From the IMG/VR virus record IMGVR_UViG_2534681766_000006: a DNA stretch of 11,465 nt, one strand, 5' to 3'. The position numbers and the translations under genes were made by a program. Origin of the DNA: a virus (lineage: Duplodnaviria; Heunggongvirae; Uroviricota; Caudoviricetes). The notes beneath the pieces are model-generated. The model was given only the letters and a program-made list of their open reading frames with translations, was not told where the DNA came from and did no database searches. This document shows positions 1,697 through 9,777 of this stretch, one piece after another. Every line of letters begins with the position of its first letter. The first letter of the stretch is position 1.

Positions 1697-2058
1697 TATG
1701 CTCCAGCCTCCGGTGCTTTTGGCATTACTGCCCAGTGAGTGATATTGACGTTTTCAAGGTCCCCGACCTGAAATGTCCACTGCCATTCTCCGGTTTCTTT
1801 TTGTCCCCAGGTGTACCAGAGAGAACGCCAGCCAATCAGCCAGCCTTCTCCATTAGCATCAAATAACAGAACACTTTCATTTGCTGGTGGCAGTTCAGCT
1901 GACACTGGTATTATTTTGTTTTCCAGTGCCGCACATTTAGCTTCAAGCGCGTCGAATTTACGTAACAGGTACTCAGCATTTGTTTCGTTCACTTTCAGAT
2001 CTCGCGGTACACATTTCCCGCGAAGAAACCCTTCCATTTCGAAAACATTCATGCGCAT
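1696..2058 (-). CDS. yfdS: Early-left operon protein, 120 aa, Trp-rich C-terminus (possibly DUF551); YfdS-like
   Basis: ORF with GGAG 9 nt upstream of the ATG at 2056-2058; stop overlaps the next start; size and order match CPS-53 YfdS as recalled. Confidence 0.55.
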   Translation of the reverse strand: MRMNVFEMEGFLRGKCVPRDLKVNETNAEYLLRKFDALEAKCAALENKIIPVSAELPPANESVLLFDANGEGWLIGWRSLWYTWGQKETGEWQWTFQVGDLENVNITHWAVMPKAPEAGA

Positions 2059-2255
2059 TTGCGTAACTCCGATAAATCGTTAAAACGTTCCATAAACATC
2101 CCGTAGGCATGACCCGGTGCCAGTGGAATCACGTTGAACATCTCTGTTGCCGGGATGCCTTCCAGTACAGGCCAGAAAGAGCCATCATCAAGCCCGAGAT
2201 CGCGGCGTTCGGTTGCCAGCATGATGAGATCGGCATATTTCACGGGTGTACTCAT
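2049..2255 (-). CDS. yfdR: C-terminal portion (68 aa) of an HD-domain phosphohydrolase (YfdR/YfbR-like), in a different frame from the N-terminal portion
   Basis: MSTPVKYADLIMLATERRDLGL resembles the region after the HD motif in YfbR-type 5'-deoxynucleotidases; its ATG sits in an ATGA overlap with the stop of ORF 2252..2584. Confidence 0.5.
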   Translation of the reverse strand: MSTPVKYADLIMLATERRDLGLDDGSFWPVLEGIPATEMFNVIPLAPGHAYGMFMERFNDLSELRKCA

Positions 2256-2584
2256 AACCGGGGTAACCCGTATTTCTCACGGATTACGGCGTCTATTTTT
2301 TCTTCCATCCGTTTATAGTCAGGAAGAAGGCGTTTCAGTGGTGCGGGAATGTCCTGGCAATACGCTTCTGTTGCATCATGCATTAACGCTTCAAAAGCAA
2401 ATTCCTGCGGCACCAGCTGGCTGCAAAGAACCGCATGTTGGGCGACGCTGTAGAAGTGCGAAAGATGACCGGCAAAGCGACAGATATTTGAAAGGGAAAC
2501 CGCGATATCGTTAATATCGATGTCGTCTTTATTTATCCTGTCATAATAAAAATGCTTCCCGGAAAAAGTTTTAATAAATGACAT
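2252..2584 (-). CDS. yfdR: N-terminal portion (110 aa) of an HD-domain phosphohydrolase (YfdR-like); start at internal Met with GGAGAACAAA-ATG
   Basis: HD motif residues H..HD..D (HAVLCSQL, EALMHDATEAY, QDIPAPLK). The two parts sum to about 178 aa, the size I recall for YfdR. Adding one C to the CCCC run (plus 2260-2263 GGGG) would fuse them as ..EKYGLPPVMSTPVKY.. Confidence 0.6.
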   Translation of the reverse strand: MSFIKTFSGKHFYYDRINKDDIDINDIAVSLSNICRFAGHLSHFYSVAQHAVLCSQLVPQEFAFEALMHDATEAYCQDIPAPLKRLLPDYKRMEEKIDAVIREKYGLPRL

Positions 2585-2677
2585 TTTGTTCTCCACGTAT
2601 ATGCACTGCACCGCGCTGAATTCTGGTAAAAGGAAGCCCTCACCATCCGGTGATTATTGAGTTAATTACGTTTCCAT

Positions 2678-3979: not shown

Positions 3980-4430
3980 CATATCGACCCTGCAAGGTCG
4001 GTTGGTTTCTCCACAAAACAGAGAAGAACACCTGCGGTGGCAGCCGCCCGGATGGATTGGGTTATGAGCCCGTCGTCCGGTGATGCTCTTCTCTGTTTTG
4101 CAAAAAAGGACGGTACCAGCCGGAAGCAAGGGTACAAACTGGTACCGCCAGGACTACACACAGCATAAAGTTGTGGTGCCGGGTGCCTCCCGGTGCCTGG
4201 CGAAGGTTGCACACCAGGCGGGGGGGTATCCACAGAAGGTCGACTGTCAGCCTCAACCTTAACCCGCGTGCGCTGAGCCGCATTCACCACAACGCTAAGG
4301 ATTCTCTCTGGTTGAAAATACTTAGCTGTTATGTGCCTGCTTTTAGCCACATCAGGCGAGGTGGACCTGGTTATTCCCCAACAACAAGGATTCGGTTAAT
4401 CTGGATATCCCCAACAACAATAAGAGTATT
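3980..4430. other. GC-rich, ORF-poor, inverted-repeat-rich region; candidate structured RNA or leader of the early-left operon, or long 5' region of the convergent moron
   Basis: 14-bp perfect inverted repeat CAAAACAGAGAAGA (4014-4027) / TCTTCTCTGTTTTG (4087-4100); 9-bp stem CGGTACCAG (4111-4119) / CTGGTACCG (4139-4147); further CCGGG/CCCGG and CCTGG/CCAGG pairs; ORFs here are Pro/Gly/Arg-rich and implausible. Confidence 0.35.
4375..4420 (+). repeat. Two copies of the direct repeat TCCCCAACAACAA (4375-4387 and 4408-4420), 33 bp apart, just upstream of the moron start
   Basis: Exact 13-mer duplication read directly; flanking TAT(T) also conserved; GGA motifs lie between the copies. Confidence 0.6.
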
Positions 4431-4458
4431 CAATGTGATCGCTGAATTAACGGCAGCA

Positions 4459-4950
4459 ATGACGGCTATTCGTGAAACAGCCCAGATTGCAAAACTAATG
4501 AACGAGGCAAAAACTCAAGCTGAAGTAAATGCGGCTATTGGTGAGCTGAACTCAAAGCTTGCGTCTATTCAGCGCGAATGCGTGTCTCTCGTTGAACTGG
4601 TGGGCTCTTATCAAGAAATAAATGCTTCTCTCAAAGCTAAAATTGCAGAATTCGAAAACTTTGAGGCTCAGACGGAAGGCTATATCCTTAACCAACTTGA
4701 GTCGGGTACTTTTGTATACTCGAAGGAGGTAATCGTGAACGGTGGCAGCATAACCATGCATCTTTGCCCAAAATGTTTTGGACAAAAGATAGTATCGATA
4801 CTTCAACCATTCCCGGTTAGCGAAGATGAGCTTTTTCATAAAAGCAGGTGCCTCCACTGTGAAAATAAGTTTCTGATGAATAAAAATCCGGATTACGTAT
4901 CGCCTCCATCCATTGAGGAGTTGTCCAGAAAACTTAACGGCAATCTGTAG
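4459..4950 (+). CDS. Hypothetical moron protein, 163 aa: N-terminal coiled-coil plus C-terminal C4 zinc ribbon (CPKC-x24-CLHC); function unknown
   Basis: Low-GC ORF (about 42% by eye) convergent with PL, followed by its own terminator. Start uncertain (ATG 4459 or GTG 4435, both with weak RBS); in-frame GTG 4735 has a perfect AAGGAGG SD 5 nt upstream. Confidence 0.65.
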   Translation: MTAIRETAQIAKLMNEAKTQAEVNAAIGELNSKLASIQRECVSLVELVGSYQEINASLKAKIAEFENFEAQTEGYILNQLESGTFVYSKEVIVNGGSITMHLCPKCFGQKIVSILQPFPVSEDELFHKSRCLHCENKFLMNKNPDYVSPPSIEELSRKLNGNL

Positions 4951-5164: not shown

Positions 5165-5839
5165 TTAGGCTTTGATTTTGTATCTTCTTGGTTTTCCTGA
5201 GAAAATCACAGTTCCAATTATAGAGCAATTACCGTTGATCTTAATGTAAGGCTCAGGCCAGTTTGGGTTTAACGCTTTGAGATAACGCTGTGTCCCATCT
5301 TCTATCAACCTTTTGAAGGTGGTTTCACCTGTATCGTGCATCAATGCAATAACGTCGTCACCGTGGCAGGCAGGTACTTCAGGATCGACAAAAATCATGT
5401 CTCCCGGGCGGTACTCATCAATCATTGAATCACCTATCACCCGCAAGATATAAGTCATTTCCCCACAGGGTACAGGGCAGGGATACGTTTCTGCTGTGCT
5501 CAAATCAACCTCAGAATATCCAACTTCTTTCCATGCTCCGGCCTGTACCCATGATATGACAGGGACTAATGTGATTTGTTTATTAGTGATTGAAACATCA
5601 GGTTTTTTTGTGATGTTCGTTGTCTGGTGTTCTTGATCGAGCCATCCGACAGGCAGGGCGAAACATTTTTCGATGTGTCGTGCCATGCTGTCACCGATAT
5701 TTTTAGTAGCACCATCTCCCATAAACCTGCTGGTCTGGGTTGGCTCGCGATCAATCATAGTGGCAAAGGAAGAATTCCCTCCAACACCATCTCTCAGTTT
5801 TCTGGCGTTAGACCGCCGGATGTCATGGATTGTTTTCAT
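5165..5839 (-). CDS. cI: CI-type prophage repressor with C-terminal S24 (LexA-like) autopeptidase domain, 224 aa
   Basis: C-terminal half aligns with P22 C2 (WVQAG.W, GDSM Ser nucleophile, TFKRL Lys, NGNCSIIG); ATG at 5837-5839 has essentially no SD, consistent with leaderless translation from PRM. Confidence 0.9.
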   Translation of the reverse strand: MKTIHDIRRSNARKLRDGVGGNSSFATMIDREPTQTSRFMGDGATKNIGDSMARHIEKCFALPVGWLDQEHQTTNITKKPDVSITNKQITLVPVISWVQAGAWKEVGYSEVDLSTAETYPCPVPCGEMTYILRVIGDSMIDEYRPGDMIFVDPEVPACHGDDVIALMHDTGETTFKRLIEDGTQRYLKALNPNWPEPYIKINGNCSIIGTVIFSGKPRRYKIKA

Positions 5840-5929
5840 AACGAAATTAAAACCCTTGTACCGTTAAGGTACAAGTATCTTGAAGGTTCATTTCAATCAT
5901 GTAATATGTACACCGGAGGTACATATTGT
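5840..5929. promoter_or_regulatory. OR region with divergent PRM (leftward) and PR (rightward) and palindromic operators
   Basis: Operators CTTGTACC-gttaa-GGTACAAG (5855-5875) and ATGTAC-accggag-GTACAT (5906-5924); PR TTGAAG (5880-5885), 16 nt, TAATAT (5902-5907); PRM on minus TTGTAC (plus 5869-5874), 17 nt, TTTAAT (plus 5846-5851). Confidence 0.6.
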
Positions 5930-6130
5930 ATGAAAGCGTATTGGGACTCTTTAACCAAAGAACAGCAGGGCGAGTTGGCCGGAAAAGTTGGCTCAACTCC
6001 TGGCTACTTACGGCTGGTTTTCAATGGCTATAAAAAAGCCAGTTTTGTGCTGGCTAAAAAACTTGAGCAATGCACGTCAGGTGCAATTACGAAATCTGAC
6101 TTAAGACCGGATATCTATCCGAAAGATTAG
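5930..6130 (+). CDS. cro: Cro-like HTH (XRE family) repressor, 66 aa
   Basis: Start ATG 5930 with GGAGG 11 nt upstream; HTH QGELAGKVGSTPGYLRLVFNGY; the longer ORF 5627..6130 would overlap cI and is rejected. Confidence 0.8.
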   Translation: MKAYWDSLTKEQQGELAGKVGSTPGYLRLVFNGYKKASFVLAKKLEQCTSGAITKSDLRPDIYPKD

Positions 6131-6161
6131 CAGAACACTTTCAATTTTTAACCACAGAACG

Positions 6162-6731
6162 ATGAGGCTAATCGTGGGTAAGCATCACTGGAAAATAGAA
6201 AAACAGCCTGAGTGGTACGTGAAAGCTGTCAGAAAAACTATCGCGGCGTTGCCGGGTGGTTACGCTGAAGCGGCTGACTGGCTCGATGTAACAGAAAACG
6301 CTTTATTCAACCGCCTTCGTGCAGATGGCGATCAGATTTTCCCGCTGGGATGGGCAATGGTTTTACAGCGTGCTGGTGGCACTCACTTCATTGCTGATGC
6401 TGTGGCGCAGTCTGCAAATGGCGTCTTTGTGTCGCTTCCTGACGTCGAGGATGTGGACAACGCCGATATTAACCAGCGTCTGCTGGAAGTCATTGAACAG
6501 ATCGGCAGTTATTCAAAACAGATTCGTTCAGCAATCGAAGACGGTGTAGTGGAACCGCATGAGAAGACAGCAATTAACGACGAGCTGTATCTCTCAATTT
6601 CGAAGCTGCAGGAGCATGCAGCACTGGTCTACAAAATCTTTTGCATTTCAGAAAGTAATGACGCCCGCGAGTGTGCAGCTCCGGGCGTCGTGGCGTCGAT
6701 TGCTTCTGGTTGTGGAGAAACTAACGCATGA
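6162..6731 (+). CDS. cII-position regulatory protein, 189 aa (possibly YdaT / phage-CII CP76-like; family not verified)
   Basis: ORF directly after cro; alternative start GTG 6174 has a better SD (GAGG, 6-nt spacing); stop overlaps the next ATG (ATGA at 6728-6731). Confidence 0.65.
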
Positions 6732-7066
6732 ACAGTTTAACAACACACTACCGTCGCTCGCAACTGATTGCGCTTCCTGTACCGGGTGGAAAAGCGAAGG
6801 GGGAATATTGCTATGCAGTGAATGTACCAGGTGACAGGGAAATTGTAACCCACAGCTTTGCAGAGTGGGCTGTGGGGGATTTCAACCGGCAGAAGGAGAC
6901 AGTCCTTTGCGACAAGTTAACCGCTGGTTCAAAGATCACTACGGAGTGCCCGTCAGAGTCATTCGTTGGGAACCGGAAACACAACGGGTTATCTACCTCC
7001 GCGAAGGCTATGAGCATGAGTGCTTCAGTCCGCTCGAACAGTTTCGTCGTAAATTCAGGGAAATAG
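6728..7066 (+). CDS. Hypothetical protein; the N-terminal ~63 aa look genuine, the C-terminal Ser-rich tail looks off-frame
   Basis: ATGA-coupled to the upstream gene; protein-like until ..VLCDK (about 6915), then low-complexity. Confidence 0.4.
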
Positions 7067-7086
7067 AGGTCGGTCATGAGCACTAA
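6865..7086 (+). CDS. Hypothetical protein, probably the C-terminal part of the same gene as 6728..7066 (frame -1); the region [37 protein letters not shown] looks genuine
   Basis: Frame open from 6835; the listed start is GTG; stop overlaps the O-like start by 11 nt; one extra nucleotide near 6913-6917 would fuse the two ORFs (..CDK-VNRWF..). Confidence 0.4.
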
Positions 7087-8017
7087 ATTAACCGGCTATG
7101 TATGGGATGGTTGCGCAGCGTCAGGCATGAAATTATCCAGCGTGGCAATTATGGCCCGCCTGGCTGATTTCAGTAATGACGAAGGTGTGTGCTGGCCATC
7201 GATTGAAACCATTGCCCGCCAGATTGGCGCGGGGATGAGTACCGTCAGAACGGCTATCGCACGGCTGGAAGCAGAAGGCTGGTTAACGCGTAAGGCGCGT
7301 CGCCAGGGTAACCGCAATGCGTCGAATGTTTATCAGCTTAACGTTGCGAAGCTTCAGGCAGCGGCATTTTCTCAAGTGTCAGATTCTGACCCGTCAAAAT
7401 CTGACGCATCAAAATCTGACCCGTCAAAATTTGATGCGTCGAAATCTGGCAAAAAAGCGGGTTTTCACCCGTCAGAATCTGGCGGGGATCCGTCAGTAAA
7501 ATCAAAACATGATCCGTCAGATAAAAAACCTTCTCGTCCGGACTCTTCGCAACCGGACACGCAGACGGCTGAACAGGATTTTTTAACTCGCCATCCTGAT
7601 GCGGTTGTATTCAGCCCTAAAAAGCGCCAGTGGGGGACGCAGGATGATTTGACCTGCGCACAGTGGCTCTGGAAAAAAATCATCGCCCTGTACGAGCATG
7701 CCGCCGAATGTGACGGCGAGGTGGTTCGTCCCAAAGAACCGAACTGGACAGCCTGGGCAAACGAAATTCGCCTGATGTGTGTGCAGGATGGTCGTACTCA
7801 TAAACAAATCTGCGAGATGTACAGCCGCGTCAGTCGCGATCCGTTCTGGTGCCGTAACGTGCTCAGCCCGTCGAAGCTGCGGGAAAAATGGGATGAGCTT
7901 TCCCTGCGCTTATCGCCGTCCGTCAGCACGTACACCGAAAAACGCGAAGACCCGTACTTCAAAGCCAGTTACGACAACGTGGACTACAGCCAGATCCCGG
8001 CAGGATTCAGGGGGTGA
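7076..8017 (+). CDS. Replication initiation protein: O-like N-terminal HTH, iteron-encoded Ser/Asp/Lys linker, DnaT-like C-terminal domain; 313 aa
   Basis: N-terminus has an HTH (TVRTAIARLEAEGWL); the C-terminus ..DYSQIPAGFRG resembles the E. coli DnaT C-terminus (..SEPDSQIPPGFRG, recalled); GAGGT RBS 5 nt upstream. Confidence 0.85.
   Translation: MSTKLTGYVWDGCAASGMKLSSVAIMARLADFSNDEGVCWPSIETIARQIGAGMSTVRTAIARLEAEGWLTRKARRQGNRNASNVYQLNVAKLQAAAFSQVSDSDPSKSDASKSDPSKFDASKSGKKAGFHPSESGGDPSVKSKHDPSDKKPSRPDSSQPDTQTAEQDFLTRHPDAVVFSPKKRQWGTQDDLTCAQWLWKKIIALYEHAAECDGEVVRPKEPNWTAWANEIRLMCVQDGRTHKQICEMYSRVSRDPFWCRNVLSPSKLREKWDELSLRLSPSVSTYTEKREDPYFKASYDNVDYSQIPAGFRG
7383..7520 (+). repeat. Origin-of-replication iterons inside the initiator gene: four 15-16-bp repeats (ATYTGAC[C/G]C[G/A]TCAAA), then CCGTCAG repeats and an A-rich tract
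   Basis: Repeats at 7383-7398, 7399-7413, 7414-7428, 7429-7444; CCGTCAG at 7468-7474, 7490-7496, 7513-7519; AAAAAA at 7450-7456 and 7522-7527; classic lambdoid ori-in-O arrangement. Confidence 0.65.
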
Positions 8018-8019
8018 TC

Positions 8020-8508
8020 ATGAGTCTTTTGAATGACGTTCAGAAATTCATTGAAGCCCATCCGGGGTGTACTTCCGGAGACATTGCGGATGCTTTTGCA
8101 GGTTACTCACGACAGCGCGTTCTGCAGTCAGCAAGCAAGTTACGTCAGAGTGGGCGTGTGGCTCACCGTTGTGAAGGGGATACACGCAGACATTTCCCGC
8201 GGCTGACTGAGATACCGCAGGAGCCGGAACCGCAACCAGTTCGTGAATCCAGACCTGTGCGCAATTTCTATGTCGGCACTAACGATCCCCGGGTGATTTT
8301 GTGCCTGACCCGCCAGGCGGAAGAACTGGAGTCCAGGGGCTTATACCGTCGTGCTGCAACGGTGTGGATGGCGGCATTCCGTGAAAGCCACTCCCAGCAA
8401 GAGCGAAACAATTTTCTTGCGCGTCGTGAGCGGTGTTTACGGAAAAGCAGCAAGCGCGCTGCATCGGGTGAAGAGTGGTATCTGTCAGGGAATTACGTGG
8501 GGGCTTAA
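8020..8508 (+). CDS. PerC-family transcriptional regulator-like protein (N-terminal winged-helix-like region plus PerC-like motif), 162 aa
   Basis: Motif AEELESRGLYRRAATVWMAAF..RNNFLARRERCL resembles the PerC/Pch signature (LE..GLWRRAA..W, recalled); start ATG 8020 with GGGGG SD; stop overlaps the Dam start (TAATG). Confidence 0.6.
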   Translation: MSLLNDVQKFIEAHPGCTSGDIADAFAGYSRQRVLQSASKLRQSGRVAHRCEGDTRRHFPRLTEIPQEPEPQPVRESRPVRNFYVGTNDPRVILCLTRQAEELESRGLYRRAATVWMAAFRESHSQQERNNFLARRERCLRKSSKRAASGEEWYLSGNYVGA

Positions 8509-9161
8509 TGAGTAATAAATATTGCCAGGCGCTGGTGGAGCTGCGGAACAAACCAGCCCATGAACTGAAGGAAGTGGGCGATCAGTGGCGCACGCCGGAC
8601 AACATTTTCTGGGGAATTAACACCCTGTTTGGCCCGTTTGTTCTGGATCTGTTTACTGATGGTGATAACGCCAAATGCGCCGCGTATTACACTGCGGAAG
8701 ACAACGCGCTGGCGCATGACTGGTCAGAACGTCTTGCGGAGCTTAAAGGTGCTGCCTTTGGTAATCCCCCGTACAGCCGCGCCAGTCAGCATGAGGGGCA
8801 ATACATCACCGGCATGCGTTACATCATGAAGCATGCCAGTGCCATGCGTGATAAAGGCGGGCGCTATGTTTTCCTGATCAAAGCTGCCACCAGCGAAGTG
8901 TGGTGGCCGGAAGATGCAGACCATATTGCTTTTATTCGCGGGCGTATTGGTTTTGAACTGCCAGCCTGGTTTATCCCGAAGGACGAGAAGCAGGTGCCGA
9001 CAGGCGCTTTCTTCGCTGGTGCTATTGCTGTTTTCGACAAGACCTGGAAGGGACCGGCAATCAGCTACATCGGGCGCGATGAACTTGAGGCATGTGGTGA
9101 GGCCTTTCTGGCGCAGGTTCGCCAGCAGGCGGAAAAACTGGTCAGGGAGATGGCGGCATGA
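8508..9161 (+). CDS. Phage DNA N6-adenine methyltransferase (Dam-like), 217 aa
   Basis: Motif IV FGNPPY plus surrounding conserved context typical of phage Dam methyltransferases. Confidence 0.88.
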   Translation: MSNKYCQALVELRNKPAHELKEVGDQWRTPDNIFWGINTLFGPFVLDLFTDGDNAKCAAYYTAEDNALAHDWSERLAELKGAAFGNPPYSRASQHEGQYITGMRYIMKHASAMRDKGGRYVFLIKAATSEVWWPEDADHIAFIRGRIGFELPAWFIPKDEKQVPTGAFFAGAIAVFDKTWKGPAISYIGRDELEACGEAFLAQVRQQAEKLVREMAA

Positions 9162-9484
9162 CGACGTTAACTCAATGCCAGCAGCAGGGGCTGGATATGC
9201 TGATTTCTTACCAGCAAGAACGTGGCTTTCCGCCAACCAATCAGGAGGTGGCAACCATGCTGGGATACCGTTCGGTGAATGCAGCGGTGGAGCATCTTCG
9301 CGCACTGGAGAAAAAAGGCGTCATCACGATAAAGCGTGGCGTGGCCCGGGGGATAACTCTTCATACCGCGGTGAAGGACGACGACAGCGAGGCGGTCGGG
9401 ATTATCCGCGCACTGCTTGCCGGTGAGGAAAACGCCAGGCTGCGTGCAGCCCACTGGTTACATGAGAGGGGCCTGAAAGTATGA
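9158..9484 (+). CDS. LexA N-terminal DNA-binding-domain homolog lacking the S24 peptidase domain, 108 aa
   Basis: LTQCQQQGLDMLISYQQERGFPPTNQEVATMLGYRSVNAAVEHLRALEKKGVITI aligns at roughly 40-45% identity by eye with E. coli LexA residues ~4-70; no Ser/Lys catalytic domain; ATGA coupling to Dam. Confidence 0.8.
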   Translation: MTTLTQCQQQGLDMLISYQQERGFPPTNQEVATMLGYRSVNAAVEHLRALEKKGVITIKRGVARGITLHTAVKDDDSEAVGIIRALLAGEENARLRAAHWLHERGLKV

Positions 9485-9777
9485 AGCTGATCTTGCCTTT
9501 CCCTCCCAGCGTGAACACGTACTGGCGACACCCCAACAAAGGGGCGTTTGCTGGTAAGAGTCTGATAAGCGCAGCGGGGCGCAAATTCCAGAGCGCGGCG
9601 TGCGCAGCAATAGTTGAGCAGTTACGTCGTCTGCCGAAACCAACGTCGGCACCTGCTTCAGTGGAGATCGTGTTGTTTCCTCCGGATACCGTGGCATTTG
9701 AAGAGAAGTATGGCTCCCAGCTGGAGCTGATATTTCGTTTTATCGATCGCGCACTGGCGATTGGTGTGCTGGCCTGA
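9481..9777 (+). CDS. RusA-family (Holliday-junction resolvase)-like protein, 98 aa, with divergent or shortened C-terminal half
   Basis: N-terminus [13 protein letters not shown] matches RusA LPWPPS.N.YYRH, and ..VEIVLFPPD matches ..IECHMPD; the Asp-rich catalytic segment (RRRRDLDN.. in RusA, recalled) is not recognisable. Confidence 0.6.

Follow-up and report, generated by a model that had tools for sequence, protein, structure and literature searches.

The replication module of a lambdoid prophage was analysed in a window of 11,465 nucleotides taken from IMG/VR virus record IMGVR_UViG_2534681766_000006, and all positions given here refer to this window at its full length. The module comprises an O-like replication initiator gene (7076..8017, plus strand) with no recognisable helicase loader and, after it, a yfdN-type gene of the PerC family (8020..8508, plus strand). 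The comparison of related loci revealed that the C-terminal tail of such initiators varies together with the type of loader encoded downstream, which is a new comparative result. It is fairly probable that the block is an 'initiator-only' lambdoid prophage module, whose tail recruits host DnaB-DnaC and whose yfdN gene is optional. The covariation gives a cheap and testable handle on how loader-less lambdoid phages obtain DnaB and on how DnaT recruits DnaB and DnaC, a step which is still unknown according to a 2026 preprimosome paper (PMC13377028).

The initiator, its iterons and its terminal peptide

The initiator of 313 residues is made up of three parts, namely an N-terminal winged helix, a repetitive linker and a C-terminal domain. 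PHROG 391 ('replication initiation O-like') spans its full length (3e-135), and the protein is 99.7% identical to the 'DNA replication protein O' of phage PhiR29_1. The core of the N-terminal winged-helix DNA-binding domain lies at residues 23-70 (7142..7285, plus strand) and matches Pfam HTH_36 at 4e-11, above the cut-off, with weaker Pfam matches to GntR, DnaD_N and RP-C over the same stretch. These matches are in accordance with the preliminary description of this DNA, which had called the protein an O-like initiator. The C-terminal globular domain (residues 166-282; 7571..7921, plus strand) is of the lambda O C-terminal type, having 39% identity to that domain over residues 166-277 (E 1e-17; E 2.5e-23 by direct tblastn), and it shows a weak DnaD/G39P-like fold. 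An AlphaFold2 model of residues 165-313 was confident for residues 165-282, where the predicted local distance difference test score (pLDDT) was about 95, and gave 48-69 for the tail; on this model the tail is probably flexible. Full-length homologues of the initiator are 56-98% identical to it, and its body is common to PhiR29_1, vB_EcoM-689R6 and Klebsiella phage Kp4878-1. A profile scan of viral contigs with the initiator returned near-identical copies only and no extra diversity.

The linker-coding DNA carries the putative origin iterons, six 13-bp near-palindromes of the GTCAAAATCTGAC type at 7378..7483 (no strand assigned), which start at 7378, 7393, 7408, 7423, 7438 and 7471. They were detected by a repeat search and by Tandem Repeats Finder (period 15, 4.3 copies). 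Five of them are spaced at exactly 15 bp, equal to one SD(P/A)SK pentapeptide of the linker. Iteron matches with up to 3 mismatches numbered 13 against 3.9 expected, and none of 200 shuffles reached 13, thereby supporting the earlier claim that the gene carries its iterons in frame. The number of pentapeptide units differs among the initiator homologues, which is what an iteron array would lead one to expect. The repeat search and the base composition placed two more GATCCGTCAG half-sites and the A-rich stretch of lowest G+C content (GC) at 7487..7535 (no strand assigned), the GC being 0.375 at 7500-7539 compared to 0.55-0.62 in the flanks. By analogy with the lambda origin, this stretch is a candidate unwinding region. 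DnaA boxes were not enriched and no perfect box was found near the iterons; no sign of DnaA dependence was found.

The C-terminal tail comprises residues 283-313 (7922..8014, plus strand) and ends in the DnaT-like peptide SQIPAGFRG (7988-8014), which is identical in eight of nine residues to SQIPPGFRG of E. coli K-12 DnaT. The preliminary description had read this C-terminus as a fused DnaT-like domain. The likeness of the terminal peptide was confirmed, and the domain was not recovered by any of the comparisons made. When a 69-sequence initiator profile was aligned with a DnaT profile by hhalign, only the last 18 residues were aligned. The C-terminal half of the initiator gave no match to the DnaT Pfam family (PF17948) even at E<=10, and phmmer against PDB sequences returned MarR-type winged helices only and no DnaT. 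BLASTP of DnaT against the initiator gave no alignment beyond the tail, and neither the N-terminal oligomerisation domain of DnaT nor its three-helix single-stranded DNA (ssDNA)-binding C-terminal domain was found in the initiator, whose own C-terminal domain is instead that of lambda O. Judged from these sequence comparisons, the initiator is a lambda-O-type protein with a short DnaT-like terminal peptide and not a domain fusion. The IPxGFRG motif is kept in 99 of 107 DnaT orthologues, and the GFRG tail is carried by three mutually unrelated initiator bodies, those of the window, SfV orf39 and mEp390 gp42. DnaT is not known to have a sequence-specific DNA-binding domain.

A different end was observed in the initiator of the epsilon15-like Salmonella phage gene SPN1S_0046 (L187:848-1663), which ends WQQKLARSVQLSRS...RDVNAVPEPDSEIPPGFRG and there nearly equals the final part of the DnaT C-terminal domain together with its tail. 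The next gene is DUF1064 rather than a loader. From this sequence, a true DnaT C-terminal domain may be present in some phage initiators.

Covariation of tail and loader

The absence of a P- or DnaC-type loader, also claimed in the preliminary description, held in all searches. Neither lambda P (PF06992) nor the IstB/DnaC family (PF01695) was matched by Pfam in any open reading frame (ORF) of the window. tblastn with lambda P, K-12 DnaC and K-12 DnaB produced no credible match to the window or to the genomes of PhiR29_1 (46 kb) and mEp390 (40 kb); in the two phage genomes nothing fell below E 0.004, and the single match at that level lies in a phage tail gene.

Homologues of the window initiator are conserved through ...SPSKLREKWDEL and then carry alternative tails. 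The genomic context was examined for 80 species-level loci and for selected members of every tail class, the downstream 3.5 kb being classified by tblastn against lambda P, DnaC, DnaB, YfdN and Dam, and a covariation set of 83 non-redundant loci was obtained. All ten loci with a tail of the lambda O type (TDWIYG) or of the ...W..(T/V)L type were followed by lambda P, with a DnaC-type loader in none and a missing loader in none. For the ...GFR(G/S/T/V) tail (55 loci), lambda P was never present, a DnaC-type loader was present in 2 and no recognisable loader in 53. The ...RWNxIWKE... tail was found in 18 loci, with lambda P in 0, a DnaC-type loader in 0 and no recognisable loader in 18. The occurrence of P after lambda-type or W..L tails (10/10) compared to GFR tails (0/55) gave a Fisher p value of 6e-12 for loci that are not phylogenetically independent. 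The RWNxIWKE tails belong to Providencia, Yersinia, Rahnella, Buttiauxella and Ewingella (loci L031, L034-L041, L061, L070, L074, L082, L083, L090, L092 and L096-L102). One unclassified locus (L091), whose tail is IPEGF plus an extension, has a DnaC-type loader after it.

The tails that most resemble DnaT (...VN.IS.PD..IPPGFRG) stand upstream of DnaC-type loaders, as in L014, Rac ydaU-ydaV, Gifsy-2 and Shigella phage 75/02, and such a tail stands upstream of a DnaC-type loader in 75 of the 76 IMG/VR loci carrying that loader. The initiators of Rac, Gifsy-2 and the Stx phage 75/02 end ...VN.(V/I)S.PD..IPPGFRG and resemble the window initiator in this end, and unlike it they are followed immediately by their own IstB/DnaC-family loader. 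Among these initiator plus DnaC-type loader modules, the E. coli initiator P0102 (L014) is a full-length homologue of the window initiator with 62% identity. E. coli DnaT is comparable in its SQIPPGFRG end and in gene order, as dnaC directly follows dnaT in the host, and DnaC-type loaders follow the tail-bearing initiators in the same way; it differs in the two DnaT domains to which the window initiator has no homology.

The lambda O-P system shares with the window the iterons in the linker-coding part of the initiator gene, the homologous C-terminal domain (39%) and its place in the pR operon, behind cII. The window differs from it in having no P gene, in an N-terminal domain of HTH_36 type rather than of the lambda O N-terminal family, and in the last ~30 residues, lambda O ending ...TDWIYGVDL. 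The close homologues of the window initiator that carry lambda-type or W..L tails are those with P downstream of them. The nearest layouts are SfV orf39-orf40, ST64B sb42-sb43, mEp460 gp43-gp44 and the yfdN region of K-12 CPS-53, in which an initiator ending ...NVDYSQIP(A/T)GFRG is followed by a PerC-family gene, Dam, a LexA-like gene and RusA. SfV orf40 differs from the PerC-family gene of the window by a handful of residues. The initiator bodies of SfV, ST64B and mEp460 are unrelated to that of the window except for the HTH_36-type N-terminal domain, with the last ~33 residues 82% matching.

Since all these modules must put the same host DnaB in place, and the tail varies with the type of loader, the tail is most simply read as a loader-specific recruiting peptide. 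If so, a GFRG tail in a phage that has no loader would therefore point to the use of host DnaC-DnaB. The reliance on the host loading machinery put forward in the preliminary description is plausible, as GFRG-type tails were never found with lambda P and only with a DnaC-type loader or with none.

Recruitment of host DnaB and alternative readings

In the proposed mechanism, the N-terminal winged helix of the initiator would bind the 13-bp iterons within its own gene, and the lambda-O-type C-terminal domain would organise the origin complex. As the phage encodes no loader, host DnaB would have to be delivered by host DnaC, and the flexible C-terminal tail (...NVDYSQIPAGFRG) would recruit the DnaC-DnaB complex. 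The yfdN-type gene would be an optional accessory of the early-right operon, probably encoding a regulator or a protein-binding factor, and would be dispensable for replication.

Several points weigh against this mechanism. The non-independence of the loci applies to all the covariation counts, and 'no loader' stands for no lambda P, DnaC or DnaB homologue within 3.5 kb downstream, so that an unrecognised loader is possible. The RWNxIWKE class is also loader-less in its 18 loci, and GFRG is accordingly not the sole route to a module with no loader. The pairwise BLAST E-value of the tail against DnaT is only 0.009, and the tail of the window is a shorter variant whose match to DnaT extends over no more than about 9-14 residues. 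That the iterons are bound and act as an origin is proposed by analogy with lambda. The N-terminal domain of DnaT, and not its tail, has been proposed as a possible recruiter, the mechanism being unknown and the tail undiscussed (PMC13377028). The literature examined assigned no function to the DnaT tail (PMC13377028, PMC4132743), and literature searches gave nothing on the tail.

A wider reading, which is tentative and somewhat doubtful, is that the IPxGFRG peptide may be a portable recruitment tag for a DnaC-type loader or for DnaB-DnaC, common to DnaT and to several unrelated families of phage initiators. Loader-less phages would then mimic the DnaT tail to capture host DnaC-DnaB, and the dnaT-dnaC operon itself may have arisen from an 'initiator plus DnaC' module of a phage. 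This reading, if true, would identify the element by which DnaT hands off to DnaB/DnaC.

The DnaT-like tail could instead plug the initiator into the PriA-PriB restart primosome, so that DnaB would be loaded by the restart pathway; this corresponds to the recruitment of the host primosome implied in the preliminary description. DnaT, with which the tail is shared, is a restart protein, and many public records already name such initiators 'primosomal protein I'. The same tail is, however, carried by initiators that come with a DnaC-type loader of their own. Cryo-electron microscopy has shown PriA and PriB touching the C-terminal globular domain and the linker of DnaT, no role being described for the tail (PMC13377028), and the window initiator has neither of those DnaT elements. 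This route is considered unlikely.

It is still less probable that the module is a dead remnant whose likeness to DnaT is due to chance or is neutral. The prophage of the window does carry a 1.9-kb rusA-ydfU deletion and a frameshifted yfdR, and the weak tail E-value given above would suit this reading. The initiator, yfdN and Dam genes are nevertheless intact and 99.4-99.9% identical to sequenced phages and to thousands of genome copies, the tail is kept on three unrelated initiator bodies and across genera, and in the sample it tracks the loader type perfectly. In comparison with both of these alternatives, recruitment of the host DnaC-DnaB complex by the tail is preferred.

The yfdN-type gene and the surrounding prophage

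The yfdN-type gene encodes 162 residues from the ATG at 8020, for which the AGGGGG is better placed than for the start that RefSeq uses (GTG at 8014), and begins 2 nt past the initiator stop. It was matched by PHROG 1324 and by Pfam PerC (PF06069) with 37.8 bits against a gathering score of 22.6, over residues 100-151 of the 164-residue form, and its RefSeq annotation is 'PerC family transcriptional regulator' (gene yfdN). No helicase-loader signature was found in 8020-8508, Pfam giving PerC only, even at E<=10 on both halves. Both the PerC-like assignment and the lack of a loader signature given in the preliminary description were thereby borne out. The model of YfdN shows a winged helix (residues 1-60), a disordered linker and a three-helix PerC domain (residues 90-143).

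The further claim that this gene sits where P or DnaC would be did not hold as a statement about function; yfdN stands 'where P would be' because P is absent. In mEp390 the GFRG-tail initiator is followed directly by a LexA-like gene with no yfdN, and in Stx2a_WGPS2 yfdN is split by an insertion sequence (IS). It is the next gene in 18 of the 55 GFR-tail loci, is absent from 34 of them (about 60%), and follows an authentic P gene in 3 of 9 W..L loci. The gene is an optional accessory, the first after the replication genes and not part of replication. That YfdN replaces P as an adaptor or loader coupling the initiator to DnaB would fit its position, the translational coupling suggested by the 2-nt gap and its company with the tail in SfV, ST64B and mEp460 as in the 18 loci, but it is scarcely credible given the loci just named and a winged-helix and PerC fold with no AAA+ or lambda P similarity. 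As a P replacement YfdN is largely refuted by its dispensability in related phages.

The resemblance to the virulence regulators PerC of enteropathogenic E. coli (EPEC) and Pch of enterohaemorrhagic E. coli (EHEC) is confined to the C-terminal ~55 residues, which match Pfam PerC above threshold, and to the prophage-borne location shared with the EHEC pch genes (PMC5931665). YfdN differs in its length of 162 residues and in the extra N-terminal winged helix, the ler-activating group-1 pch genes being 315 bp long (about 104 residues) (PMC5931665). Only the short group-1 Pch proteins (PchA, PchB, PchC) strongly activate ler (PMC5931665), and PchD and PchE have little effect on it (PMC5931665, PMC6265319). 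K-12 yfdN was only deleted as a precaution, for a clean background (PMC5931665). The literature examined holds no report of YfdN activity on ler or another target, and the control of host genes suggested in the preliminary description found no support there. Two over-readings are corrected by these results: the initiator is no DnaT fusion, and the gene after it does not stand in for P and is not a demonstrated virulence regulator. The PerC domain of YfdN (8311-8466) also gave a sub-threshold match to the NCBIfam family ANR (AraC negative regulator), with 24.1 bits (E 2.4e-5; cut-off 32). This is a lead and not a finding, and it hints at a possible kinship of PerC-domain and ANR proteins as small helical modules that bind proteins.

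The expression of the block was considered from the control region upstream. The immunity and early-right control region that feeds the module (5165..6731, no strand assigned; Pfam Peptidase_S24, YdaS_toxin/HTH_3 and Phage_CP76; NCBIfam YmfL) holds a cI-like repressor (5165-5839, minus strand), a Cro/YdaS-like gene (5939-6130) and a cII/YmfL-like gene (6162-6731). A scan of the plus strand from this region through Dam gave no notable terminator or promoter. As no promoter-like site was found between pR and yfdN, expression of yfdN with the early lytic operon is suggested; the promoter scan, which found no sigma-70-like site in 5800-9300, missed pR itself too and is weak evidence. The Dam gene, a phage N6-adenine methyltransferase (8508..9161, plus strand; Pfam Dam 1e-45, TIGR01712 2e-76, RefSeq coordinates), overlaps the yfdN stop with its start (TAATG).

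Upstream of the initiator (6728-7086) two overlapping ORFs lie in different frames. The first is YmfM-like (6728-7066; PHROG 1170, 9e-69) and is annotated in PhiR29_1. The second, annotated by RefSeq, is a DUF4222 gene (ORF 6865/6907-7086; gene 6907..7086, plus strand; Pfam DUF4222 3e-19) which overlaps the initiator start and also closely precedes homologous initiators in Pantoea and Klebsiella. The slot upstream of the initiator is likewise filled by DUF4222 in four loci of other genera (L011, L018, L019 and L022).

Taken as a whole, the window covers the left arm of a lambdoid E. coli prophage that occupies the argU/DLP12 attachment site. It is colinear with phage PhiR29_1 (PV340556) at 99.4% identity, one 1.9-kb deletion aside. 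Its genes run from the integrase through early-left genes of the yfdT, yfdR, yfdQ and yfdP types to the cI-like repressor, Cro/YdaS-like and cII/YmfL-like genes, and continue with the DUF4222 gene, the initiator, yfdN, Dam, a LexA-like gene, a truncated RusA, Q and a porin. The block is an ordinary and very common lambda-like E. coli prophage replication module, already known and annotated. The stretch 7000-8600 was matched in 3363 of 5426 complete E. coli genomes, the match covering at least 80% of the query in 1909 of those 3363, and RefSeq names its products 'helix-turn-helix domain-containing protein' and 'PerC family transcriptional regulator (yfdN)'. The same loader-less layout occurs in SfV, SfII, SfIV, ST64B, mEp460, cdtI, Stx2c phages and several PhiR phages, and K-12 CPS-53 (yfdN) shares the layout of the block. 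Phages PhiR40.1, PhiR47.1 and PhiR55.1, which have the same tail as the window initiator, were employed in plaque assays (PMC13190303), and the module therefore supports lytic growth. As a genome feature it is of little note, being among the commonest E. coli prophage blocks and present in phages sequenced since 2002.

Some changes in this prophage were observed outside the module. Compared with PhiR29_1, the 1.9-kb deletion joins the 5' end of rusA to the 3' end of ydfU/DUF968 in 9481-9777, with the junction near 9683-9691 and the KilA-N gene lost; the resulting 98-residue fusion ORF matches RusA (residues 3-45) and DUF968 (residues 69-95). The gene yfdR, which encodes an HD-domain 5'-deoxynucleotidase (2049-2611, minus strand), is present as two ORFs in different frames (2049-2255 and 2252-2611). 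As yfdR is a single gene of 178 residues in L001 and PhiR29_1, the split is probably a frameshift. In K-12, the YfdR homologue reportedly binds DnaA, and overexpressing the yfdQRST cluster reportedly inhibits initiation on the chromosome (PMC4776307).

PADLOC gave no defence-system match for the initiator, YfdN, the LexA-like protein or the ORF at 4384-4950. Between the early-left genes and the repressor lies an ORF of 259 residues (4171-4950, plus strand), in a slot where prophage accessory or defence genes are often found. It has a weak coiled-coil-like Pfam match only, and is annotated with 242 residues in PhiR29_1 and 171 residues in RefSeq.

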